A stretch of DNA of 64,000 nucleotides from Pseudomonadales bacterium. Lineage in GTDB: Bacteria > Patescibacteriota > Microgenomatia > UBA1400 > PJMF01. Within the stretch, counting starts at the first letter, position 1. Each line of letters begins with the position of its first letter. Location of the stretch: positions 184,216 through 248,215 of the forward strand of contig JACKFX010000001.1 in NCBI GenBank assembly GCA_020632255.1. The letters are read 5' to 3'. The position numbers and the translations under genes were made by a program. The notes below the pieces were generated by a model. That model was given only the letters and a program-made list of their open reading frames with translations, had not been told where the DNA came from and ran no database searches. This document shows positions 14,024 to 57,846 of this stretch, piece by piece.

Positions 14024-14099
14024 GGACCCGTGGTGTAGTGGTTAACATGCTTCCCTGTCACGGAAGAGATCGCCGGTTCGACTCCGGTCGGGTTCGCCA
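14024..14099 (+). tRNA. tRNA-Asp (anticodon GTC)
   Basis: Cloverleaf by eye: acceptor GGACCCG/CGGGTTC, anticodon loop CTGTCAC, T-arm GGTTCGACTCC, encoded CCA. Confidence 0.85.
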
Positions 14100-14164: not shown

Positions 14165-14283
14165 CCACGTTCTGCCACATGGTGAGTGACACCTGTCACG
14201 AACCAGGTTAATGCATGCGAGCTTCACAAAGTAGAAGTAAATAGTAGCGAGTCGTAGATCCCGGTCGGGTTCGCAAGTTTTAT
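14165..14283 (+). pseudogene. decayed tRNA-Asp-like duplicate (pseudo-tRNA)
   Basis: Three patches colinear with tRNA-Asp: catggtgagtga (D-arm-like), CCTGTCACG (anticodon arm, exact 9-mer) and CCGGTCGGGTTCGC (T-arm/acceptor, exact 14-mer). About 60 nt of unrelated sequence sits between the last two. Confidence 0.4.
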
Positions 14284-14294
14284 TTTATATTGAT

Positions 14295-14866
14295 ATATAA
14301 CTTGATTTCCCCGCGGCTCTGCCGCGCGGAACCTTGTAGGAAGGTGCGGAAACCCTCGGTTTCTGCGACAATTGAGGGATGAGTCCAGTCAAGACCTTCC
14401 ACAACGCGTACGATACGCACTACCACATCGTCTTTCCTGTTAAGTATCGAAAAAGTTTGCTAACCAATGAAATTCTGCTCGCGATAGTGGAAATCGCGCA
14501 AGAAATCAGTGAACGGTACGACATCGAATTTGAAAAGATTGGTACCGATCAAGATCATATCCATATACTCGCCTCATTTGCCCCAAAATACTCAGGAAGC
14601 GATGTCGTACGAATCTTTAAAAGCATCACTGCCAAGCAACTGTTTGCGCGATTTCCTCACCTTCGAAAAGAATTATGGGGAGGGGAATTTTGGAGTGATG
14701 GATTTTATCTGGCTACGGTTGGCGAGAGGGGGAACTGGAAAGCAGTTGAACGATATGTCGCCAACCAAGGAAAGACGATGAATTTACCCCAACAACTCCA
14801 ATTACTCACCTAACTGACTGGACTCATCCCTCGTGATACCCCGCTGGCTCTGCCGCGGGGAAATTC
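14295..14866 (+). mobile_element. IS200/IS605-family insertion sequence, tnpA only (IS200-like)
   Basis: Single Y1 HUH transposase ORF flanked by imperfect subterminal hairpins with a shared core: left ccccGCGGCtctGCCGCGcgg (14309-14329), right ccccgctGGCtctGCCgcgggg (14839-14860). The right end is fused in-frame into a truncated MFS gene. Boundaries are approximate. Confidence 0.7.
14379..14813 (+). CDS. tnpA: IS200/IS605 family Y1 (HUH) transposase TnpA
   Basis: 144 aa. HxH motif (DHIHIL), catalytic Y region (GFYLATVG), N-terminal YHIVFPVKYRK, typical of IS200 TnpA. Confidence 0.85.
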   Translation: MSPVKTFHNAYDTHYHIVFPVKYRKSLLTNEILLAIVEIAQEISERYDIEFEKIGTDQDHIHILASFAPKYSGSDVVRIFKSITAKQLFARFPHLRKELWGGEFWSDGFYLATVGERGNWKAVERYVANQGKTMNLPQQLQLLT

Positions 14867-16319: not shown

Positions 16320-16674
16320 GATCTTTTGCTCCTCATGTTTTTATTCGAAATTTTAATTTGCTTGATCTGAACCACTGTTTTATTAGTAATTCAAATCATT
16401 TATATTATGGGATATAATTGTTGTTTTGTCAATCAGGCCTACTCGATGAAAACTAGGCAAAATGCCAGGCGCGAGGCCTGGCATTTCTTAATTTCACCAC
16501 TTCAGTGAGTTGAATCTGGCACGGAAGTGCCAGAAAAACAGAAAACCACCCGCTATGCGGGTGGAAATAAGAGTGCTTTAGCACGAAGAAATCTTTAGAT
16601 AAGAGAAACCACCTTTCTATTTGATAGGATTAGTTTTGGTACAAACAATCCGTAGAAAGGCGGTTTAATTTAGT

Positions 16675-17124
16675 ATGGCAGAAAGTCTAGCACACACCAA
16701 GTGGATGTGTAAATATCACATAGTATTTACACCAAAGTATCGGAGAAAAGCAATATACTGCAGGTTAAGAAAAGATCTACAAGAAATAATAGTAGATCTA
16801 TGCAAATGGAAAGGGATAAAAATAGTGGAGGGACACATGATGCCAGATCATGTGCATGTACTCTTATCAATACCACCAAAATATAGTGTGTCTAGCATAA
16901 TGGGGTATTTGAAAGGCAAAAGTGCCATGATGATATTTGATCGGCATACAAACTTAAAATATAAGTACGGAAGAAGGAACTTTTGGGCAACAGGATATTA
17001 TGTATCAACAGTGGGATTGAATGAAAAAACAATCAGAAAATACATCCGTGAACAAGAGAAAGCAGATTTGATAACAGACAAGTTAACAACAAAAGAATAT
17101 GAAGACCCTTTTAAGGGTAGCTAA
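16675..17124 (+). CDS. tnpA: IS200/IS605 family Y1 transposase TnpA, second divergent copy
   Basis: 149 aa. YHIVFTPKYRR, HVHVLLSIPPKYS (HuH) and GYYVSTVG (catalytic Tyr) motifs. Only moderately similar to the first tnpA, so a different IS. Confidence 0.85.
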   Translation: MAESLAHTKWMCKYHIVFTPKYRRKAIYCRLRKDLQEIIVDLCKWKGIKIVEGHMMPDHVHVLLSIPPKYSVSSIMGYLKGKSAMMIFDRHTNLKYKYGRRNFWATGYYVSTVGLNEKTIRKYIREQEKADLITDKLTTKEYEDPFKGS

Positions 17125-17367
17125 GAAATCAGTCCACAGAGATAGCATCATTTAGGTGCTGGAAGTAACAAGCCCTTATAGGGCTCAGTCAAGCCACGTC
17201 CTATGGGCGTGGTCCTGACTTCCTTTGCAGAAAACTCTGCACAGCTATGAACGAGGGTTAGCCGCGGAGCGGATAAGCCTGAGCTGTGCGGAGAGAATGG
17301 CATATCACTCGGAGAGTGATATGCTGTTAGCATGAAAACTTGTTTTCATGAGTTGCGGAGCCGAGGA

Positions 17368-17412
17368 AACTCCGTAGTCAGCGTAGCGTACTGCGGAGAG
17401 GACGTCATTAAC
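17368..17412. repeat. ~45-bp repeat 'R', copy 1 (ggaaacTCCGTAGtCAGCGTAGCGTACTGCGGaGAGGACGTCaTTAA)
   Basis: Near-identical copy at 48961-49005. Both copies abut the 3' end of a minus-strand small gene. Confidence 0.7.
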
Positions 17413-17423
17413 AAATTCTGTCA

Positions 17424-17825
17424 TTAATGCTGGTCGAAGTGAACTTGATACACAGCATAGCAAGCAGCTCTTTCTTTTGGTTGTTCGGGATTAAAGCCCT
17501 TGAAAGTGATGTGTACATCATATACAGCATGGTTCCATCTAGCAGTCCCGATTACAAAAGATTGCCCGATAGTTCCAGGAAGGTGCAGGTTGCAGTTTTT
17601 TGTAAACAGCGGCGTAAGCAGTTCGCGCAGCTGATAGGCCATCACTGCATTAACCAGAAAAATCGGTTGGCAGTAGCGACGGCAGAACACAACTTCCTTG
17701 GTAATATATTTCTTCCAAAATGGGAAAGGCCGAGAGGTGCTTGTAAACTCAACCGGAACCGCTGAGTAAATCAGATCGGGGCCAATTTCTAGAAATACTT
17801 GATTTTCACCATTTTTCAATTCCAT
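17424..17825 (-). CDS. hypothetical protein (133 aa)
   Basis: Good expression signals upstream: AAGGAGG 9 nt before the ATG and an extended -10 (TGTATAAT). No recognisable domain. Confidence 0.45.
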   Translation of the reverse strand: MELKNGENQVFLEIGPDLIYSAVPVEFTSTSRPFPFWKKYITKEVVFCRRYCQPIFLVNAVMAYQLRELLTPLFTKNCNLHLPGTIGQSFVIGTARWNHAVYDVHITFKGFNPEQPKERAACYAVYQVHFDQH

Positions 17826-17981
17826 ATGCGAGATCCTCCTTGGACTGTATTTGGAATATTTGAATTTCGACAGCTGTTAAAGATACTTGAATTATACACT
17901 ATAGGATTATCTGTGGCAAGCCAAGACCTGAAGTCAGCTTTTTTTTTCTGCAATTCCATTTATAATAAGTCTGTTCCAAGT

Positions 17982-47148: not shown

Positions 47149-47596
47149 TTTCTTCGGCTATTTGAGATGCACGTGATTCAATTTCATCTAGGTAGGTGTG
47201 GTAGGTATTGCGATCCCACATTTCTATGTACGAATAACTTCCTACTACCACAACATCTTTTTGAATCTTGGCAAAATCAGTCAAGTACTCGGGCAGTTGT
47301 ACTCGACCATTTCCATCCGGAGTCACTTCTTGCGCTTCATTTGTCATTAAACGAATAAAGTCACGATGAGTTTTTTTTGTAAACGAGCGGGCTTCTAGTT
47401 TCTCGAGTTCTGCAGTGAATTTTTCTGCTTCAAAGAGGAATAATCCTCCATCAAGACCTCGAGTTATGATCCAGGCTGATGCTTTCGATCGAAAAGCCTT
47501 TGGTAGTGATACTCTGCCTTTGTCTTCAACTCTGTGATAATATTTACCTATATACATTTTCTTATCAGACAGTTTACCACTTTTTACCACTATCAA
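47138..47596 (-). CDS. mraZ: transcriptional regulator MraZ
   Basis: MYIGKYYHRVEDKGRVSLPKAFR, duplicated MraZ/SpoVT-AbrB domains, first gene of the dcw cluster. Confidence 0.85.
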   Translation of the reverse strand: MIVVKSGKLSDKKMYIGKYYHRVEDKGRVSLPKAFRSKASAWIITRGLDGGLFLFEAEKFTAELEKLEARSFTKKTHRDFIRLMTNEAQEVTPDGNGRVQLPEYLTDFAKIQKDVVVVGSYSYIEMWDRNTYHTYLDEIESRASQIAEEIEN

Positions 47597-47686
47597 GAAT
47601 AAGTATGCTACACCCCAAGCATTTTGTAAACACTAAGATGACCCGAAAACATAGGCCAAATAGCTAATATGATATAATAAATAGCT

Positions 47687-48697
47687 ATGAGACGTTTGGA
47701 GCAAATATCACAGCAGTCGTCGTCTGAGCGTTTTCAATTGGGAAACGCAGAAATTTTTATTGGACCTTCATTTACTTGTGGAACTTCGCACATAAATATT
47801 GAAGAATCTGGACTTTCTACTTTATTAGATAAAAACAGTTTTTCACTCTCACCAGTGATGCATAAGTTTATCCAGAATGAAGGTGAACCACTTGTAAACT
47901 ATCTGGGAGCTATTATATTGTTTTTTACTAGGATTGAAAGAAAATATGTTCAAAAATCAGAAACTTGTGGTAGGTGTGATGTATTTGGCGTACCAAGAAT
48001 TTGTATTTGCAGTAAAGATACCTTTTATAGGATTCGTGGAAATCCACCTCCACCAGAATGGGCGGGAATATATGTCTGGTTTGATGGAACAGTAGTATGT
48101 CAAGCCGATTACTTAGTCGCCGCACTGTCAGGCACTGAGTTTGTTGGAAAACAAGTAGATGGGAGATCATTTATTCGTGAAATAGGACATGAACTACGAC
48201 ATTCGTATCAAGACATACTTTTCTATTATGAAAATGAAAGTTTATGCAAACATGCACAGAAATATGATTTATGGTTCTTTGAAGGTTTAGTTGAAGCAAT
48301 GGATACCACAAGTGTAGGTATGTCATTTAGTACTTTTTCGGAGCGATTTAGACCATTTTTACTAAAACATCCAAATTTTTCGTTTATGGATATTAGATCT
48401 TCGTTTTGGAATTACGATACCTCTCCGGTAATTGATAACCTGATGTATCAGTATTCTCGATTTTTTGTACAGTATTTGCTTCCTTTTTTTGATAGAGCTC
48501 TGCTTTCAACGTTGCGGGGTCATCATATTTCAGCGGAGTTCTCAAGCATATATATCATGATTGAACAATTCTCTGATGCTTATTCTGATGGTTATCGGGG
48601 GACATTCTTGGAGTTCATATCCGAAAAAATTGGGTTAACTGTTGAATTACTTCAGCAAATAGAGGCAGATTTTCAGAAGAGTATACTTGCCTGCTAA
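47687..48697 (+). CDS. hypothetical protein with HEXXH zinc-metallopeptidase-like motif
   Basis: 336 aa, GHELRHSYQD (HEXXH) in the middle of the protein. Otherwise unrecognised. Confidence 0.4.
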   Translation: MRRLEQISQQSSSERFQLGNAEIFIGPSFTCGTSHINIEESGLSTLLDKNSFSLSPVMHKFIQNEGEPLVNYLGAIILFFTRIERKYVQKSETCGRCDVFGVPRICICSKDTFYRIRGNPPPPEWAGIYVWFDGTVVCQADYLVAALSGTEFVGKQVDGRSFIREIGHELRHSYQDILFYYENESLCKHAQKYDLWFFEGLVEAMDTTSVGMSFSTFSERFRPFLLKHPNFSFMDIRSSFWNYDTSPVIDNLMYQYSRFFVQYLLPFFDRALLSTLRGHHISAEFSSIYIMIEQFSDAYSDGYRGTFLEFISEKIGLTVELLQQIEADFQKSILAC

Positions 48698-48840
48698 CAG
48701 TGATTCATAGCATTTCATAAAAAATATGGTTATCTGGTGTATGCTCATAGATTGTGAATGTGGTCTATCATAAAAAGCTCTTCAGGCAGGAAGAGCTTTT
48801 TTAAATGTATTATGTATTTTGATTAATTGGATACAACCAC

Positions 48841-48935
48841 ATATGCGTCCATCAACTCAACAGTTGTGCTGGTAGTTTTGCCATCCATTGCGGTCTCGAA
48901 GCTTGTCCACTCGGTTCCATTCCAGCCTGCAATGA
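48841..48935 (-). pseudogene. orphan duplicate of the 3' (C-terminal) ~95 nt of the 264-aa gene at 54511-55305
   Basis: Near-identical, same orientation as 54519-54613 (ccatcaactcaacagttg(t/c)gctggtagttttgccatcca(t/c)tgcggtctcgaagcttgtccactcggttccattccagcc), then diverges. No ORF context. Confidence 0.65.
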
Positions 48936-48960
48936 AGATTGTTCTTCACGAATGGTGGCT

Positions 48961-49005
48961 GCCAAGGAAACACCGTAGCTAGCGTAGCGTACTGCGGGGA
49001 GGACG
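48961..49005. repeat. ~45-bp repeat 'R', copy 2
   Basis: ggaaacaCCGTAGcTAGCGTAGCGTACTGCGGgGAGGACGTCgTTAA, matching 17368-17412 at the right end of IS200-like element 2. Confidence 0.7.
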
Positions 49006-49052
49006 TCGTTAAGTACTTGAAAATCTTCTTTAATTAAATGAAATAAGGATAT

Positions 49053-49343
49053 TTATAAGGATAATTGCTTTTCTATATCAAGAATTTCATTTTTTGAGAA
49101 AAGACTAAGTAGCATAGAAATATATGAGTTTCTTTCTTTCAAATCAAGAATTTCTTCCCAAGGATTAAATTTGAGATGAAGTTCTAGTGGATGTGGTTCG
49201 TTTATTACTCTTTTAGTAGTGTCAATTTTTATGGCTGTAACTTTGGCTTGTTCCTCAGTACCGAGTTTGGGAACGTCATGTTTATTGATAACTAAAACTT
49301 GATCGGCTAACTTTGCAATTGGGTATATTTCAGCTTGGGTCAT
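49053..49343 (-). CDS. small (~96 aa) partner protein of the giant repeat protein; candidate immunity/antidote-type protein (inference)
   Basis: Start set at the ATG at 49343 (MTQAEIYPIAKLAD...), not the TTG used by the track. AGGAGA Shine-Dalgarno overlaps the giant gene's TAG stop. 60-70% identical paralog at 54062-54355. Confidence 0.6.
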   Translation of the reverse strand: MTQAEIYPIAKLADQVLVINKHDVPKLGTEEQAKVTAIKIDTTKRVINEPHPLELHLKFNPWEEILDLKERNSYISMLLSLFSKNEILDIEKQLSL

Positions 49344-49350
49344 TATTCTC

Positions 49351-52300
49351 CTAGTACACAACTAATTCTACTGTATGATCTGGGTTTTCTCTATTATATC
49401 TATCAACCGCTGTTCTCATTTCAGAAATTTCATACTCAGCTATACCATTACCTAGTGATAAGTGAATTGAGGTAATGTCAGTCATATCTAAGCTTCCATG
49501 AATTTGAATTTCTGAATACGAACTATCGAGTGCAGGTACCAGTGATGGAACTGAGAAGTCAGTCTTGGTTGCCTCCCAAAATCTGATCACATTGTATTTT
49601 TTAAGTGCAGACAAGTAATGAGGTTTTTGAACTGGAGAAGGCGGTCGGTCGTTATTTAAACTATCACCAAAAAGGAAAGTAGACTTCTTTTTGGCCTCAT
49701 TAGCAATTCTACAGCCGGCACGACCATATTGTACGACTGTATTTTCGGGAGGATTTTTTCCCACAGAGTTTAAAACGCCATTATTATCTGGGGTAAAGTA
49801 GCCATAAATAGTTCTTGATTGAGGTTTGTAACTTGTTTCATCTGGAAAACCAAAAGTTCTTAGTTCAAAAGCAGCTCTGTAAGAATTAGAAAGACACCCT
49901 CCTGAAGTTTGGGTTTCAAACTGGCTCTTCCATCTTTTGTCTCTTGGAAGAATATGATTCAGGAGAACGCTTACATCTGTGGCTCTAAAGAGTTGTGATT
50001 GGTCCATAGAAACTTCAGTATAGCGTTGAATCTCATCTAAGAATTCTATCAGTGATAGCCCTTCTTTTCTAAGAATTGTTCTTATGTCTCCATGCTCTTC
50101 GATAGATTCTAAGAATCTTTGCTCGTAAATGAGGATATTCTTAAGCAGAGTGATCTCAAGATCAGGATTTGCTTCGACGTTCATTTTTACACTATCCCAA
50201 TCAGCCATATATTCGATGGTGACATCGGATAATTTATTAATATCGAGTTTGTTTACTTTCTCATCATCGGGGAATTTACGTTTTATTTCAATAAGTTGAA
50301 AGAGAGCCTTTTCTTTAACTTTTTCAAAGGCTTCGGCTTGTTCTGCATTTCTTTCTCTTCTGAGAGAAAACATTCTTTTTCGCTTTTCAATTCTTTCTTT
50401 CGAAAAATACGTTATATCAAAAGTCGTACCAAGATATTGTGCAGCCGAAAGGAACATATGAATTTTTTGATGTTCTTGTGCATATGTGATTAGTTCTTTG
50501 GTTTTTACATCCCTGTCATATCCGGAAAGGCTGTCATAATCTATTCCCAAGTAGGAAGCAACAATCTTATTTTCAACCACGCTAAAGGCAAAAGTCATCA
50601 TTTGTCGAAGATCTGTTAGATCACTTTCGTTTAAGTCTGTGGGCAAATCTTCAATTAGTTTAATGTTGTTAACACGTTCTTCGATTGATTTTTGTCTTTC
50701 AGTAACTTGCTCATTTGTAAAGTACGACAGATTAATATCATCATGAGTGTACTTCATACTTGCAAGCAACTTATCGATGATGGATCTTTTTCCAGCAAGC
50801 TCTATTACTTTGCTAATAGTTGAATTAAGGTAGTGACCAGAAACATCCGAGTATTTGATTCCAATCAGGCCGCAAATTTTTTTTATCTGCTGATTTTCCT
50901 TAACAACACTATAAATAGTTTCAATCAGTACTTCAGTATCCGATGAATTTAAGTTTTCAGGAAATTGGGTGCTTAGTTGTTCTATTTTTCTTTTTCTTTC
51001 TTCACCAGCACTACTCGTGAATTCAGTGATATCAATTTCCTCTTTGATATATTTGATAGCAGAAACAAATTTTTGCATCGCATTGTTATTCTGACTTGAA
51101 TCAAGCATTATATGAACTTTATTGTGTAAATCTCCATCAAGAGATGCATATTCGATGTTTAAGTAGTGTGAGAGTAGTTTGACTTCGACAGAAGCAAACG
51201 ATTCATTTGAGATAATTTGCTTTAAGCAAACAAAACTGTAGTCGTCAAATGTATTCGGGATACTTTCGTTGATTTGAATTTGTTCAGCCATTTCAACGAT
51301 TATTTGATTTCTTCTCTCAATTTCTGCAATTGAGAAAGAATCAAGACCATCATCGTTTAAGACGAATTTTGCAGCTGCGATAAACTTGTTAAGTTGTAAC
51401 CTCTTTTTTGCAATAACAAGCAGGTGCTCAACCATATCACTCTCATAGTAATCATCAATTTCAAAGTAATCTACACCGACAAAAGCGCTGATCAAGACAA
51501 TCTGACTTTTAGAGAGAGCATTTTTGGTTTTTTTCTTCAATTCTTCAAATAATTCTGGGTCAAGATCTTCTGGGAAGTCGTTAACGGATTCCAGCATCTT
51601 TTGTTGACGTTTCTCAATATTGCTTTCGGTAAATTGGGAACAATCAAGATCAGGATTAAGAGAACTAAAAGCGGAAAGGAATTTATTGGTAAGAAAGTGC
51701 TCTTGTGAGTATTTTAGAAGTTTACCTGCTTTTTTGATGGCGCTAACATCACTGAACTCATCAGGACCTATATTCATATATGCTAGTATGACCCTGATAT
51801 CATCCTCAGAAATGTTTTCAAGAACAAGAGGGTATAAGATGTGGTATGTTAATTCATCCAGTTTCTGAGGAAAATCCTCATTAAATACAATTTTATCAGC
51901 TTTTTCTTGGACAATCCTTTTTGCTGCTTCTATGCTTTCTATTGTAAATTCTGATAAAGAAATATGATCAATTGTCACCTCAACAGCTGACAAAAATTTA
52001 TTAACCTGTGCTTTTTCTTTGACTAATCGAAGTGTATTCTGCACTTTATCACTTATATAATAGCCTTCGACATCTTCCATACTAAGACCTAATGCATCTA
52101 AAATTTGCATAAGTTCAGCTGCAGTTATTTCAAACTGGATTTCTTCAAGAAGTCTAGTTTCATAGTAAGCGTCAATAGTAGTTGGATATTTATTAGCTGT
52201 TGCCTCCATCTCCTTTTGTTTGTTATCGATATATTCTTGGGTGAATCGCGTGAGATCGAGGTCTTTTTCGAGGTACACTACGGCTGAAAGAAGTTTATCT

Positions 52301-53952
52301 AGTAGTGAGTGTTCATTTGCATACTCAATAAGACTAGTGATTTTTTGATGGGTAAAATCGCCCTCTAGACTGTCGTAGTCAGCGCCAATATAGGCAGCGA
52401 TAACTTTTGAGTCCTCTTTCTCAATTTTCCAAGAGAGCTCACTAACTAAGTTATTAAGATACAATTGGCTCACTGATTTTGGATACTCACTACGCAATGT
52501 AATTGCTATTACGGATTCTTCAATATATCTACGTCTTTTATCAATATCTTCTTTTGTATAGTATGTCAAGTCAAGTCCATCAAAGAGAATGCTAATTGCT
52601 GAGAGAAATTTGTGTGTCACTTTTTTTTCTTGGACTTGATTGAAAATATTTGCAATTTCTCTGGAATAAGTTCGATCTTCAATACTTACGTATGGAATAT
52701 CAAGAAAGGTGCATAATGAGTTGATTATGTCATCATCAAGAAATGCATCCTTAATCTCTTCAAGAAGAATGTTAAAACTAGTTTGATCTAGTGTAGGATA
52801 AAAAACATCTTGAGATGCTTCTAAAGCAGCAGCTCTCTTTTTTAAAGATTCTTTTGTAAAAATCTTAAAGTCACCTGGGATATATTCTTTTCGGTAACTT
52901 GCGAAATAGATTACAGCTGACAGAAGCTTATGCATCACTGCATGATCTTGTGCATATCTAATTATGTTTTTTGCTTCAGTAGAGTAGTGTGACGCTTCCA
53001 CCTCTTCGTAGTCTGCTCCAATAAATGCAACGATTCTTTTGGCTTCATATTCAGAATGTATATTTCTTGAAATGACTCTCGTTAGTTTTGTTATACTTAA
53101 AACATCAAGTGATTCTGGGTAATCTTCTTCTTTGGCAGCAAGCTTTTCATTCAGTTTGAAAATTTCGTGGTAAAATTCTAAATCGACCTCATCTTTTTTG
53201 ATGTATTGCACTGCTGATAAAAACCTATCAAAAAGAGAATTGCCTTCTGCAAATTCAATCAGCGATGCAAATTCAATCTGCGATGAGATGCTTGTCGTGT
53301 GTGTTTCAGAAACAATCAACTCAGGATCTGCCCCGATATATTGAGCAATTACCTTTAATTCTGACTTTGTAAGTTTGTGTTGTAATTGTTCTGTCAGTGT
53401 ACGAATGTCATGTCCACTTAATGATTTTGGAAATTCATCAATGTAGGGAATTTTATCAGCTTCTTCTACTAGTTCCTCTTTTTCTCTCCTAGTTCTTGCT
53501 ATATCAAGCGCCATCAGTCTTGCGGGGGAGTCCGCATATAAACCAGGTGTTGAAATAGAACTATATGGTTCGCGTCTAGTCAATATATCTCTTATATCGT
53601 AGGAATCAAAAGGAGCATATAAATCGGATTTTTTCTCTTCTGATGTAGGGAATTTAATATCTGGGAAATCTTCTCCAATTCTAATTTTAAGGTCATCAGT
53701 TTCAAACCTAATACCTGGGAAATCTTCTCTAATTTCAAGGCCCTCGGTAGTAGCGGGTGTCATTATATCTACATCACCTAAAGGCTCTGAAATAGTTTCT
53801 TCTGGGTGAGTTTTTTTCATTGCGCGTCGAAGCATTCTAGCGAGTATACTTTTGCCAAATGAATACGGTGTATCGTCATCACCTATTTTGTAGTCAGGTT
53901 TATCTGGGTGTGACTCAATTAGCTTCTTGAATTCGTGAAATTCTGTTGTCAT
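49351..53952 (-). CDS. giant (1533 aa) repeat protein: unique N-terminal region, ~10 tandem ~105-aa novel repeats, distinct ~250-aa C-terminal domain
   Basis: Repeats share (I/V)xx(Y/F)(I/L)G(A/I)DY(D/E), then ~30 aa later (K/R)(F/L)LSA(V/I)xY(I/L/F), then D(L/I)(T/D)x(F/Y)(T/S)xE. No signal peptide, no known motif seen. TATAAT 7 nt upstream of the ATG suggests a leaderless transcript. Confidence 0.7.
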   Translation of the reverse strand: MTTEFHEFKKLIESHPDKPDYKIGDDDTPYSFGKSILARMLRRAMKKTHPEETISEPLGDVDIMTPATTEGLEIREDFPGIRFETDDLKIRIGEDFPDIKFPTSEEKKSDLYAPFDSYDIRDILTRREPYSSISTPGLYADSPARLMALDIARTRREKEELVEEADKIPYIDEFPKSLSGHDIRTLTEQLQHKLTKSELKVIAQYIGADPELIVSETHTTSISSQIEFASLIEFAEGNSLFDRFLSAVQYIKKDEVDLEFYHEIFKLNEKLAAKEEDYPESLDVLSITKLTRVISRNIHSEYEAKRIVAFIGADYEEVEASHYSTEAKNIIRYAQDHAVMHKLLSAVIYFASYRKEYIPGDFKIFTKESLKKRAAALEASQDVFYPTLDQTSFNILLEEIKDAFLDDDIINSLCTFLDIPYVSIEDRTYSREIANIFNQVQEKKVTHKFLSAISILFDGLDLTYYTKEDIDKRRRYIEESVIAITLRSEYPKSVSQLYLNNLVSELSWKIEKEDSKVIAAYIGADYDSLEGDFTHQKITSLIEYANEHSLLDKLLSAVVYLEKDLDLTRFTQEYIDNKQKEMEATANKYPTTIDAYYETRLLEEIQFEITAAELMQILDALGLSMEDVEGYYISDKVQNTLRLVKEKAQVNKFLSAVEVTIDHISLSEFTIESIEAAKRIVQEKADKIVFNEDFPQKLDELTYHILYPLVLENISEDDIRVILAYMNIGPDEFSDVSAIKKAGKLLKYSQEHFLTNKFLSAFSSLNPDLDCSQFTESNIEKRQQKMLESVNDFPEDLDPELFEELKKKTKNALSKSQIVLISAFVGVDYFEIDDYYESDMVEHLLVIAKKRLQLNKFIAAAKFVLNDDGLDSFSIAEIERRNQIIVEMAEQIQINESIPNTFDDYSFVCLKQIISNESFASVEVKLLSHYLNIEYASLDGDLHNKVHIMLDSSQNNNAMQKFVSAIKYIKEEIDITEFTSSAGEERKRKIEQLSTQFPENLNSSDTEVLIETIYSVVKENQQIKKICGLIGIKYSDVSGHYLNSTISKVIELAGKRSIIDKLLASMKYTHDDINLSYFTNEQVTERQKSIEERVNNIKLIEDLPTDLNESDLTDLRQMMTFAFSVVENKIVASYLGIDYDSLSGYDRDVKTKELITYAQEHQKIHMFLSAAQYLGTTFDITYFSKERIEKRKRMFSLRRERNAEQAEAFEKVKEKALFQLIEIKRKFPDDEKVNKLDINKLSDVTIEYMADWDSVKMNVEANPDLEITLLKNILIYEQRFLESIEEHGDIRTILRKEGLSLIEFLDEIQRYTEVSMDQSQLFRATDVSVLLNHILPRDKRWKSQFETQTSGGCLSNSYRAAFELRTFGFPDETSYKPQSRTIYGYFTPDNNGVLNSVGKNPPENTVVQYGRAGCRIANEAKKKSTFLFGDSLNNDRPPSPVQKPHYLSALKKYNVIRFWEATKTDFSVPSLVPALDSSYSEIQIHGSLDMTDITSIHLSLGNGIAEYEISEMRTAVDRYNRENPDHTVELVVY

Positions 53953-53959
53953 AGAAAAA

Positions 53960-53965
53960 ATTATA
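53960..53965 (-). promoter_or_regulatory. -10 box (TATAAT) 7 nt upstream of the giant gene's ATG; possible leaderless transcript
   Basis: Minus strand reads taggTATAATtttttctATGACA. No Shine-Dalgarno is present. Confidence 0.35.
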
Positions 53966-54061
53966 CCTATTTTTTATTGGCTATGTAATAACAAAAAAAG
54001 GAATTTTTTATAGTAAAATATTTTGACCAAGTACTGAATTAAAACAAGCTTAACTGTAACT

Positions 54062-54355
54062 TTATTTTTTCAGTTGTGATTCGATATTACTCATTGTTTC
54101 TTTGGAGAAAAGTCTTAAAAGCATAGACATATAGGCATTTCTCTCATTTTGATCAACAATTTCTTCCCAAGGATTAAATTTGAGATGAAGTTCTAGTGGA
54201 TGTGGTTCGTTTATTACTCTTTTAGTAGTGTCAATTTTTATAGCCTTAACAGTAGCTTGTTTTCTAGGATTTCCAAGTTTAGTTACGTCACTTTTATTAA
54301 TTACTAACAGTAAGTCGGCAAGTTTAGCTATTGGGTAAATTTCGGGTTTTTTCAT
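54062..54355 (-). CDS. small partner-protein paralog (97 aa) of 49053-49343
   Basis: MKKPEIYPIAKLADLLLVINKSDV...KIDTTKRVINEPHPLELHLKFNPWEEI is colinear with the partner protein. Confidence 0.6.
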   Translation of the reverse strand: MKKPEIYPIAKLADLLLVINKSDVTKLGNPRKQATVKAIKIDTTKRVINEPHPLELHLKFNPWEEIVDQNERNAYMSMLLRLFSKETMSNIESQLKK

Positions 54356-54369
54356 ATTAAGTATATAAC

Positions 54370-54500
54370 CATCTCAACGGGATAATCTGGATATAGTTGA
54401 TTATACTCTAAGACTGCTTGTTTCATCTGACCAATTTATTTTCGGGTGATATTATTATTCTTTGATAGATGAATTGAGGTAATATCATTCATGGTAACTT
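54370..54500 (-). pseudogene. degenerate remnant of a giant-protein C-terminal coding end (orphan C-terminal cassette)
   Basis: 54380-54500 aligns by eye at ~65-70% identity with the last ~45 codons of the giant gene (49365-49500), e.g. gata(g/a)(a/g)tgaattgaggtaat(a/g)tca, with indels and frameshifts. No ORF remains. Confidence 0.55.
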
Positions 54501-54510
54501 CACCATTGAA

Positions 54511-55305
54511 TTAGTTGCCCACCACAACATACGCTTCCATCAACTCAACAGTTGCGCTGGTAGTTTTGCCATCCACTGCGGTCTCGAAGCTTGTCCACTC
54601 GGTTCCATTCCAGCCCATGATGGTGAGTGCACCTTCATGTTTTGCACGGATGCTGAGTTCTGCTTCACCTGAAAGAATTGTATTACTGGTCAAAGAATAA
54701 ACTTCTGAAGCTAACTTACCTTCAAGTTCGCCTGGGTATCCTGGAGAGTTGTAGATAATCAGCAAGCTGTTTCGAGCCAAATCTTCAGAATCAATCTGAA
54801 AAAAGGCATCTTTGGAAGCAAAGGCTGTTTCGCCGTTGTTTTCAATGTATTTCCAGTCAGACTTAAGGTCATAGTTGTTGTCTCCTGTGTAGAAAGCTCG
54901 GAGTTCTCCCCCCTTCACATCTTCGTGATAGGTACATGATCCACCTGCACTACAGCTGCCAAGCAAGATTTTATCTTCTGCAGGCAGGCTCATCAGGTCA
55001 ATCTCACCAAAGGCACCCTGGAGGAGTGAACCCGTTTGGTACTCAAGTTCGTACTCTGCAGCATCTGCAGCCAGTTTAACTTCTTCAACTTCAATGACAA
55101 CATTTCGGCTATCAACAGGGACGATGCGCATGTATGGGCGTTCTGCGACGTCGATGACATTGTAGTTACGTATAGTGGTTTTCTTTTTTGTTGGCTCCTC
55201 TGTAGCTGTTTCTGCAGGTTTGCGGGTCATCATGTAGGCACCGACACCGATACCGAGTAACACCAAGACAGCTACGACACCTGCAATAACTTTTTTATTC
55301 TTCAT
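54511..55305 (-). CDS. hypothetical membrane-anchored/secreted protein (264 aa)
   Basis: N-terminal TM/signal anchor (VIAGVVAVLVLLGIGVGAYMM), then a mostly beta-type domain. Its 3' end is duplicated at 48841-48935. Confidence 0.5.
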   Translation of the reverse strand: MKNKKVIAGVVAVLVLLGIGVGAYMMTRKPAETATEEPTKKKTTIRNYNVIDVAERPYMRIVPVDSRNVVIEVEEVKLAADAAEYELEYQTGSLLQGAFGEIDLMSLPAEDKILLGSCSAGGSCTYHEDVKGGELRAFYTGDNNYDLKSDWKYIENNGETAFASKDAFFQIDSEDLARNSLLIIYNSPGYPGELEGKLASEVYSLTSNTILSGEAELSIRAKHEGALTIMGWNGTEWTSFETAVDGKTTSATVELMEAYVVVGN

Positions 55306-56760: not shown

Positions 56761-56966
56761 AGAACCCTTTCTGGTTTTACCCCTTGGGATATAAATAATC
56801 CCTACAGTACTAATCATACGTGTAGGGACCCTGCCGGGCGGTTCCACCCTCGTTCCACGCGGTTGCATTTGCAGGTGCGTGACACTTTTTTGTGAGAATA
56901 CTTACTTCCTTACTTGAGAGAAAGGTCACTTGCCAAGGGTGAAAGCTATCTGGCCAAATTATAGCA
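56761..56966 (-). promoter_or_regulatory. glyQS leader: putative glycine T-box riboswitch with extended -10 promoter and terminator
   Basis: On the minus strand: TGCTATAAT (56958-56966); specifier-like CTTGGCAAG with GGC followed by A; T-box-like AGGGTGGAACCGCC (56836-56849); terminator TCCCTACA...TGTAGGGA (56799-56828) then ATTATTTAT. Confidence 0.55.
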
Positions 56967-57212
56967 CATATCCAACCACTTTTGCACTGACTATGTTGTC
57001 AGTCACTCTCCTGACTATACGTTAGCAAGAGTGGCCACAACAAACTGATCTTTAACAGGGTTATTAGGTTTCTCCATATAAGAGATGAACGTTTGGCTTG
57101 TTGGCTACATAAAAAGCAACACAGAGCTTATATATCTGTAGGTTGTGTGTTGTTTTTTACTGTCGTCCAGCAGTAAGCTGGACTTTTTGAATTTACTTTA
57201 AGGAGAATTGAA

Positions 57213-57794
57213 ATGAACTTTTACGGTTTTGATCGCACAGGAAAGTTGGTTTTTGGATTTGAAGTCAAAGAAGAAAAAAATGAACGCAGCAGCCATCCGC
57301 AACGCAAAGTTGTAGTTGGCAAGCGTTTCTTAAATGTTCGTTGGCCTGTACAAGCCAACAAGGACGGCCGAATCTTGGCCGGCTCCTTCGATTTATCCAA
57401 CCGGTTCCCCACCATCGTCAATAAAGGCGATGATGGGGGAAATAATACTGCCATCATCTTCGATGCTTCTGGCTTGCCGATGTGCAAGCTGGAAGTTAAG
57501 ATTTATCGTGAAAACGAAGAAGTCGAGCCAGAAGTGTATTTGGCTGACTTTGGGGAAGGAGTTGGGACGAAATTTGTTACAGCTCTTGTAACACTTCATG
57601 AGGGTGATGAGGTTGAAGTAACTTCATCCTATCGCGGCGACGAGTACGTCGTTGCAAAAATCACCTGGGAAGATGGAAAGCCGGTTCGCTGGCAAGCCTC
57701 TTCTCAAGAACTGGCGAAGATGAAAACTGCCCAGTCCCACAAAACGGCTGACCGCACGCGGCGGCGCCTGAATTGGGAACAAAAACATAAATAA
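57213..57794 (+). CDS. hypothetical protein (193 aa)
   Basis: Strong Shine-Dalgarno (AAGGAGaattgaaATG). Terminator follows directly. No recognisable motif. Confidence 0.5.
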   Translation: MNFYGFDRTGKLVFGFEVKEEKNERSSHPQRKVVVGKRFLNVRWPVQANKDGRILAGSFDLSNRFPTIVNKGDDGGNNTAIIFDASGLPMCKLEVKIYRENEEVEPEVYLADFGEGVGTKFVTALVTLHEGDEVEVTSSYRGDEYVVAKITWEDGKPVRWQASSQELAKMKTAQSHKTADRTRRRLNWEQKHK

Positions 57795-57810
57795 TGCCTA
57801 GCACCCCTTA

Positions 57811-57842
57811 AAGAAAAGCCCCACTCGAGAGTGGGGCTTTTT
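57811..57842. terminator. bidirectional intrinsic terminator between the 193-aa gene and murF
   Basis: A-run, then AGCCCCAC-tcgaga-GTGGGGCT, then TTTTT. Confidence 0.7.
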
Positions 57843-57846
57843 GCGT

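Follow-up and report, generated by a model that had tools for sequence, protein, structure and literature searches.

A non-coding recombination scar beside a giant gene in a Patescibacteria genome, probably left by insertion-duplication at the tail of a conserved gene

Orphan effector remnants are familiar from Rhs and CDI systems, where C-terminal displacement gives an arrangement comparable to the one described here. In E. coli, circularised donor DNA that integrated by a single crossover left duplications of 109-950 bp of the homologous locus (PMC3240628), and homology-facilitated illegitimate recombination (HFIR) has been invoked for T6SS effector-immunity arrays (PMC5361080). Mobile elements of the IS200/IS605 family are cut at their tips and produce no target duplication (PMC10055086). 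The present analysis concerns a short interval of the 64-kb window, by which we mean the whole stretch of 64,000 nucleotides.

The interval at 48698-49052 (355 bp) is a non-coding recombination scar of a known kind, which is well resolved and has no function of its own. On one side it is bordered by a 336-aa hypothetical gene (47687-48697, plus strand), which is low in GC, lineage-specific and convergent with the genes on the other side. These all lie on the minus strand and comprise small1 (49053-49343, 96 aa, ATG at 49343), found immediately downstream of the giant gene; the giant gene itself (49351-53952, 1533 aa); small2 (54062-54355, 97 aa, 74% identical to small1); a giant-like pseudogene remnant (54358-54505) and a gene for a 264-aa membrane-anchored protein (54511-55305), referred to here as 264, which is conserved across Patescibacteria and syntenic with glyS. 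The remnant retains the last ~47 codons of the C-terminal domain, contains an in-frame stop and starts ~2 codons past the 264 stop. An earlier note on this DNA had given the gene order correctly as 264 fragment, small, giant, remnant, small and 264, and its view of the interval as a rearrangement scar holding a non-coding orphan fragment of 264 is supported by the analysis below.

Two repeats define the scar. A repeat search of the window paired 48822-48927 with 54510-54615 in direct orientation (106 nt, 96/106 identical, 91%), and the match was confirmed by word-7 blastn (E = 3e-37), with a true offset of 5688. The copy designated T (54511-54615, minus strand) is the functional 3' end of 264. 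Its partner T' (48823-48927, minus strand) contains the final 34 codons and the stop of 264 and has no start codon; an in-frame stop lies just upstream, and the translation reads ...GWNGTEWTSFETAMDGKTTSTTVELMDAYVVVSN up to the terminal stop. A previous pairing of 48841-48935 with 54519-54613 had thus recognised a real orphan, though 10 nt out of register and extended past 48927, where the homology stops. The second repeat has a core at 48961-49012 matching 17360-17411 (52 nt, 88%) in the same repeat search, which word-7 blastn extended to 48932-49012 and 17332-17411 (82 nt, 82%, E = 2e-14). The extension takes in a further hairpin, in which an A-T pair is replaced by G-C in a compensatory change, and a 27-mer from the core occurs at these two sites only in the window, with 0 expected from shuffles. 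The ~45-bp repeat reported before at 48961-49005 and 17368-17412 is likewise real, but was paired 8 nt out of register and represents part of the 82-nt span. Four nucleotides, TGCA (48928-48931), join T' to the second repeat. The joint is the same in L010, a MAG from another sample, and in the ENA contig L025, so that it is present in three assemblies including the window, and two Logan contigs (L011 and L012) extend into T'.

The similarity between T and T' is distributed unevenly. Read in coding orientation, the inner 80 nt (block A' of T', 48848-48927, minus strand) are identical at 78/80 positions (97.5%) with 0/26 third positions changed, and the last 25 nt (block B0, 48823-48847, minus strand) are identical at 17/25 (68%) with 6/9 third positions changed. 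The third-position contrast between the blocks is significant (Fisher p = 5e-5), as is the max-chi2 breakpoint at position 80 (permutation p = 0.0017), within the scope of a mosaic inference resting on one 105-nt repeat with 10 differences, eight of which fall in the last 25 nt, mostly at synonymous sites. Over the last 25 nt, T and T' resemble each other no more than either resembles other genera (64-80%), and the tails of both are typical of the family (EAYVVVGN in T, DAYVVVSN in T'). Genus-level divergence between family-typical tails indicates that they diverged as working genes in separate lineages, the tail of T being of a different, deeply diverged type. The inner 80 nt appear to be of recent common origin. 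Block A' differs from T at two positions, both of them G-to-A changes in T' that alter the encoded residue; the base of T is kept in all three relatives at the A>T site and in L002 only at the V>M site, a pattern that fits the decay of a fragment no longer translated. Across the inferred breakpoint block, GCAACTGTTGAGTTGATGGAAGCGTATGT, T is identical to L002 at 29/29 positions, L002 being a relative of ~80% identity, and the block could therefore support a crossover even between diverged lineages. The mosaic could alternatively reflect later gene conversion of the inner 80 nt. A role for T' as a silent gene-conversion cassette for variation of the 264 protein was also considered and found no support, T' being a single 34-codon fragment with two changes in its inner block.

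The sequences beyond the two stop codons differ in kind. An AT-rich spacer and a bidirectional intrinsic-terminator hairpin, AAAAAGCTCTTC-N6-GAAGAGCTTTTT (48772-48802, fold z = -5.9), make up the 62 nt past the T' stop, which align with the 62 nt past the 264 stop in L005 (z 4.8, 0/1000 shuffles) and in L006 (z 3.6). No alignment to the 264 downstream sequence of L005 or L006 was found past the T stop, where the giant remnant is present instead. Since the spacer and terminator downstream of T' match those of the relatives' 264 genes, whereas T runs into a giant-like remnant, the comparison identifies T' as the displaced native 3' end of 264 together with its native terminator.

The surroundings were compared in relatives at ~70-81% DNA identity, which share the order RecO - Mur ligase - GlyRS - 264 - variable slot - mraZ - mraW - ftsL - PBP. 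The content of the slot varies from one genome to the next: 485 bp with an 88-aa membrane protein gene in L005, an 87-aa and a 418-aa gene in L002, an alpha-2-macroglobulin gene and a Memo gene in L006, and the whole of 47664-54510 in the window, in which the 336-aa gene occupies the place of the relatives' 87-88-aa membrane protein gene. The GC content of 47664-54510 is 34-35%, against 44-47% in the flanking core genes, with T' (48%) and the second repeat (52%) as GC-richer patches. The scar probably marks the distal edge of a variable, low-GC region that lies between 264 and mraZ and was acquired horizontally. The earlier proposal that the giant and partner module was inserted or duplicated therefore holds to the extent that the module lies in what reads as inserted DNA (34% GC, with different content in relatives); T', as the displaced native end with its own terminator, is not merely a duplicated piece of that module. 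A conspecific genome with an empty site was not found, and four hypothetical 264 proteins with the T'-type or hybrid tails expected of such a site were all absent, by exact look-up, from a collection of 15 billion proteins. The window's own 264 protein is clustered in the protein collection under a 120-aa partial representative. Named members of the 264 and GlyRS families are Patescibacteria, Pacebacteria or Paceibacterota, and the label 'Pseudomonadales bacterium' appears to be wrong.

The second repeat led to a reassessment of the insertion sequences near 17 kb. The IS200 copy referred to previously as the second IS200-like element (16493-17220, plus strand, 728 bp) lies 3' of TTAAT and has the right end ...GGTCCTGACT. 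L015 and L016 also contain it, next to other right flanks; the sequence in common starts after TTAAT or TTTAT (~16493) and ends in the same right end at 17220. L014 is 99.7% identical to window 17220-17885 and has no IS200 copy; its junction, which adjoins rpsI, reads ...GTTTGTTAAT followed directly by TTCCTTTGCAG.... The missing IS200 copy in L014 and the flanks in L015 and L016 together establish that 17221-17412 is separate from the IS200 copy. This 192-nt segment, designated element E (plus strand), reads as a tnpA-less element of IS200/IS605 type with a left-end hairpin (z -4.6) and a right end of ~82 nt made up of a short hairpin and a motif hairpin; the left- and right-end hairpins are each preceded by AGRAAACTC. 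In L014 it stands directly 3' of TTAAT, with the same right flank as in the window. The repeat had been placed at the right flank of the second IS200-like element, which holds only loosely, as the IS ends at 17220, 111 nt before 17332. The distance from that end to the 45-bp core of the earlier note is 139 nt.

A search of 596 Gb of GTDB representative genomes for the right-end motif returned one match, L001, which provides one autonomous example. There the motif lies at 690-735, after a tnpA stop at 671; the tnpA product matches NCBIfam transpos_IS200 (E = 9e-23), and a GGAAACCCCGTAG box is present at both ends, the left-end box within a hairpin. The left part of element E has a layout similar to that of the L001 left end, with a sequence alignment z of only ~3.2. 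We read element E as a candidate tnpA-less, PATE-like derivative of an L001-type element, and the window's IS200 copy as a later insertion at the same TTAAT.

The copy in the scar (48932-49012, plus strand) is an IS200/IS605-family right-end relic of ~82 nt, the left end and tnpA being missing, and element E is its intact counterpart. It comprises a small hairpin, a GGAAAC box, a right-end hairpin (CCGTAG-13 nt-CTGCGG) and the tip GAGGACGTCGTTAA, corresponds to only the right 82 nt of element E, and has a mismatch in the right-end hairpin (fold z -0.15). It is nearer to the L001 right end (89-96%) than to element E in its own genome (82%). The earlier attribution of the repeat to an IS200-like end is therefore sound at the level of the IS200/IS605 family, to which the right end would belong by these matches, and does not hold for the adjacent IS200 copy. 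The inner side of the relic lies within 4 nt of T', and its transposition-active tip faces small1. No clear microhomology was seen at the joint; there is a possible AGC/ATGA match around 48925-48935, blurred by later divergence, and the junction nucleotides would allow at most 3-4 nt. Because the relic is cut internally and its tip points away from T', while IS200/IS605 elements are cut at their tips, the joint is an illegitimate junction and not a transposase product. The idea that IS200-like ends mediated the rearrangement is not borne out, given this geometry and the fact that the end copies are only 82% alike. Recombination between the end copies at 17.3 kb and 48.9 kb was rejected on the same 82% identity and on the closer similarity of the 48.9-kb copy to the L001 element. 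Also rejected was an IS-like unit that would have a left end near 47664, enclose the 336-aa gene and T', and finish at the relic tip (49012), as no left-end-like sequence or TTAAT junction was found near 47664.

The genes enclosed between T' and T look like an effector-plus-partner cassette with an adjacent orphan pair of remnant and partner, in which the effector and partner roles are predicted. The giant product contains EAD7 at residues 1115-1168 and a C-terminal DUF3626/SopF-like domain of effector type at ~1189-1533; EAD-type adaptors of the EAD7 group mainly recruit effectors (PMC7159879), and DUF3626 is the SopF family (PMC6682159). For the C-terminal ~345 residues, the family comprises 701 representative relatives. 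Among 150 listed, these are 135-2722 aa long and mostly carry the domain at their C-terminal end; the gathering score of DUF3626 is attained by some of them, and NUDIX, topoisomerase-IB, polyvalent-protein kinase or ADP-ribosyltransferase domains occur in some. In six other loci (L017-L021 and L024), a homologue of the small protein lies downstream of such a gene. The small protein was modelled with confidence (pLDDT 92), and Foldseek returned no significant fold match in the PDB; the giant C-terminal domain gave 0 matches in a sequence search of the PDB and none in a tblastn-type scan of IMG/VR. A word-indexed search for giant homologues recovered only near-identical copies of the gene itself, and the donor was not found. 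The products of small1, small2, the 336-aa gene, 264 and a 133-aa gene had no hits in PADLOC, NCBIfam or Pfam, and BLAST of 48700-54700 against phage and plasmid collections found nothing. A spurious sub-threshold FliL match was the sole match among those products. The small genes share an 84-nt exact repeat, R, at 49149-49232 in small1 and 54158-54241 in small2, and are ~70% identical outside it, against 97.5% for the inner block of T and T', indicating that the two duplications differ greatly in age.

The model that best accounts for the locus, at a probability of roughly 0.6, is insertion-duplication by a single crossover of incoming DNA, without mediation by an IS. The hallmark of insertion-duplication and HFIR is seen here, with one junction in homology, one illegitimate junction and duplicated recipient sequence. 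The homologous junction in 264, the illegitimate one at the broken IS end and the ~80-nt recipient duplication point to a single crossover of a circularised fragment; both this route, with its circular intermediate, and the order in which things happened are what we infer. On this model, the T-type tail would have entered the donor lineage earlier, from a more distant lineage. The incoming DNA would already have contained the final ~9 codons from a diverged allele of 264, the giant remnant, a small partner and a truncated IS200-family right end. One limit of this fragment would have lain ~105 nt ahead of the 264 stop and the other in the middle of that right end; the full-length giant gene may have been part of the same DNA or have been added later at R. 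Through one homologous crossover in ~80 nt of the 264 3' region, the circularised fragment would have integrated in Campbell style, with the incoming tail T keeping the 264 reading frame intact. The native tail T' and its terminator would thereby have been pushed ~5.7 kb downstream and fused to the broken inner side of the IS relic, where decay began. Before the insertion, the 264 gene would have ended in ...AMDGKTTSTTVELMDAYVVVSN, followed by the terminator now at 48772-48802, and the relic would have been a passenger at the end of the incoming fragment and not the agent of its entry.

Of the other origins that were weighed, one takes T and T' as attL and attR of a degraded integrative element, whose lost or distant integrase targeted the 264 3' end and whose attP supplied the replacement tail. 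Direct repeats 5688 bp apart do bracket the island, T does complete the 264 reading frame, attP-borne gene ends typically supply a diverged replacement tail, the L025 junction described below resembles an attP junction, and a second duplicated gene end adjoins tRNA-Asp in the same window. However, no recombinase domain was detected in the giant, small1, small2 or 336-aa products (Pfam, NCBIfam, PADLOC), the region was unmatched in phage, plasmid and viral collections, the 80-nt near-identical arm far exceeds what an integrase core needs, and one of the supposed att arms is a broken IS end, which is unexpected for a dedicated attP; we consider this origin unlikely. In situ tandem duplication of the 264 3' end with the giant and small module, followed by deletions and neutral decay, would explain why T and T' share lineage-specific residues (WNGTEWTSFETA) that are absent from relatives, and why small1 and small2, and the giant remnant, are clearly paralogous. 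Neutral decay, though, predicts an even spread of differences rather than the clustering of mostly synonymous changes at the gene end, and T' is flanked by the native terminator; the order of genes does not suit a simple tandem repeat either, since T' comes after small1 and the IS relic and not ahead of a giant copy, and the disparity in age between the small genes and the inner block also speaks against a common event. We regard such a duplication as improbable. The 82-nt repeat could in turn be a functional or REP-like structured element, for example a 3'-UTR or terminator module beside small genes, and not derived from a transposon, given that both copies lie 12-40 nt past the stop of a minus-strand gene and hairpin 1 shows one compensatory change. 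Against this, the same sequence in L001 directly follows an IS200 tnpA and is accompanied by a left end with the matching GGAAACCCCGTAG hairpin, the 48.9-kb copy folds no better than shuffled sequence, and the genes adjoining the two copies are unrelated. The motif is, moreover, very rare in public data. JGI metagenomes yielded 0 matches with two patterns, one with a variable loop, IMG/VR yielded 0, and Rfam had no match in 48600-49150; with two copies in the window and one in the GTDB representatives, three are known in total. REP/BIME-type families have tens to hundreds of intergenic copies per genome, and nothing of this kind was seen in the window or the public collections, which is as far as the common genome-wide REP-like element envisaged by the earlier note can be assessed. 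A structured element of this sort is very improbable.

Two contigs present alternative junctions and bear on whether the window is correctly assembled. In L010, window positions 47549-49232 run directly into 54158-54873, and each side is 100% identical to the window; the contig skips the giant gene and is without the 5,009 bp between the R copies in small1 and small2. In L025 the giant 3' end is followed by small1 and the relic, which is joined directly to T, the remnant and small2; from T onward it matches the window at 100%, with no change in the relic junction nucleotides. A circle, or 48928-54615 duplicated head to tail, would give just such a junction through a crossover in the 39-nt block identical between T and T', which counts in favour of the single-crossover model. 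The Logan unitigs break exactly at this block and at R. Both contigs may be assembly chimeras at the 84-nt and 39-nt exact repeats, or they may record amplification and excision of a cassette. The joins in L010 and L025 and the positions of the unitig breaks would also fit a window that is itself partly artefactual, with a tandem duplication collapsed or the giant unit misplaced by the contig. That the joint between T' and the relic is identical in three assemblies, that each unitig is used once in the window path, and that T and T' differ at 10 positions and hence are no collapsed repeat all make such an artefact improbable. If the junctions are instead genuine, the 5,688-bp unit from T' to T might be a live cassette without an integrase, excising as a circle or amplifying in tandem through the 39-80-nt block and re-entering the 264 3' end by host recombination, with R gaining or losing the giant gene independently. 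We hold this to be rather unlikely; were it so, a mobile conflict-gene cassette of Patescibacteria would be using the scar as a working attachment site, with L025 and L010 as alternative states of the cassette.

If insertion-duplication is the correct reading, the scar illustrates how a lineage-specific giant 'conflict' gene, combining EAD7 with a SopF/DUF3626-like domain, reached a streamlined Patescibacteria genome not by transposition but by recombining into a conserved gene's tail, in the variable hot spot that separates glyS-264 from the mraZ cell-division cluster. The preserved end of what appears to be the pre-insertion gene, with its terminator, makes the event reconstructable. The IS end is also reassigned by the analysis, and a miniature IS200-family element, as element E appears to be, is recorded in the Patescibacteria phylum. 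Should the alternative junction contigs be real, the repeats would still be driving changes in copy number or loss of the cassette, which would be relevant to strain-level variation in uncultured bacteria; should they not be, the locus is a matter of ordinary genome archaeology.

Compared with insertion-duplication in E. coli (PMC3240628), the locus has the same types of junction, with foreign DNA trapped between the copies and 80-106 nt duplicated here; in contrast to those experiments, the homologous arm is shorter, and the event is read from sequence alone. Islands that integrate at the 3' ends of tRNA or protein genes are likewise bracketed by gene-end repeats, with the island supplying the new tail and the displaced native tail found at the far border, but they differ from this locus, which has no integrase, a broken IS end on one 'att' side and a near-identical arm of 80 nt. 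With respect to the IS200/IS605 family, the relic matches the right end that follows the Y1 transposase gene of L001, and element E, sited 3' of a TTAAT that the neighbouring IS200 has also used, resembles PATEs in having hairpins at both ends and no tnpA (PMC3119063, PMC10055086, PMC7290912). The 48.9-kb copy, unlike these elements and PATEs, is a truncated right end that cannot transpose. Finally, the effector-immunity arrays of the V. cholerae T6SS (PMC5361080) similarly place a small partner after a full-length modular effector-type gene, and the 3' remnant of a second effector beside a diverged partner. Here, in contrast, the orphan pair is upstream of the full-length gene, no secretion system is evident, and the toxin and immunity roles are putative.

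An alternative junction was present in L025 (ENA ERZ27309081, k141_19758), in which window positions 49453..48928 are joined to 54615..54200. The order across this junction is the IS relic (48932-49012), the functional 3' end of the 264-aa gene (54511-54615, minus strand), the giant remnant (54358-54505) and the partner gene small2 (54062-54355), and the window carries no such junction. Such a junction is expected if the 5,688-bp unit 48928-54615 exists as a circle or has been duplicated in tandem, or if the assembly is chimeric across the 39-nt identical block. A version of the locus devoid of the giant gene (49351-53952, minus strand) was found in L010 (GCA_020429005.1, JAGQLV010000128.1), which corresponds to window 47549-49232 followed by 54158-54873, with 100% identity to the window on either side of the joint. 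The joint lies at the 84-nt exact repeat 49149-49232 = 54158-54241, within small1 (49053-49343) and small2, around which the paralogous sequence of the two genes displays only ~70% identity. L010 may represent a true deletion or a pre-insertion variant, may reflect gene conversion, or may result from loop-skipping by the assembler.

Elsewhere in the window, an IS200 copy is placed exactly between TTAAT and element E, the tnpA-less IS200-type element at 17221-17412 (whole arrangement 16488-17412). In L014, a locus from another assembly, the same E and a 133-aa gene (99.7% identity) follow TTAAT beside the rpsI terminator, and the left neighbour of E differs from that in the window. The sequences thus imply that a rearrangement with its breakpoint at the TTAAT target site separates the two arrangements. 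Upstream of the IS200 tnpA, Rfam gave a weak, sub-threshold match (19 bits, 16544-16659) to STnc490, which we take to be the Salmonella IS200 5'-UTR RNA; its Rfam description refers only to an Hfq-binding sRNA. A second scar of the displaced gene-end type was also observed in the window: the tRNA-Asp 3' end CCGGTCGGGTTCGC occurs at 14084-14097 and again 177 nt downstream at 14261-14274, shortly before the start of the first IS200-like element (tnpA 14379-14813).

The 5' portion of mraZ, together with the sequence preceding the gene (47282-47663), shares 93% identity with the relatives L002 and L003, and 47565-47662 shares 90% with a further relative, L005, while the neighbouring core genes reach only 77-81% with the same relatives, a pattern that reflects either strong constraint or recent exchange. 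A second variable slot, flanked by glyS and the gene for the Mur ligase, was noted at 56869-57846; it holds an oppositely oriented 193-aa gene in the window, a 503-aa gene in L005 and a LysM protein in L006, and is empty in L002. In public records the source MAGs of the window and of L001 are both labelled Pseudomonadales; this label is probably wrong, because their gene content and protein relatives are those of Patescibacteria (Pacebacteria/Paceibacterota).

The small partner proteins belong to a family of only about 7 clusters in 5.8 billion, with an invariant HLKFNPWEE motif, and the confident AlphaFold model (pLDDT 92) had no significant match among PDB folds. At L017 and L018, two tandem paralogues of the giant C-terminal-domain family are followed by a homologue of the small protein, and a PARP-domain gene adjoins. 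This C-terminal domain (49351-50400, residues ~1185-1533) is fused in other proteins to NUDIX, topoisomerase-IB, Kinase-PolyVal or ADP-ribosyltransferase domains, and its large family (701 representatives) is related to DUF3626/SopF.
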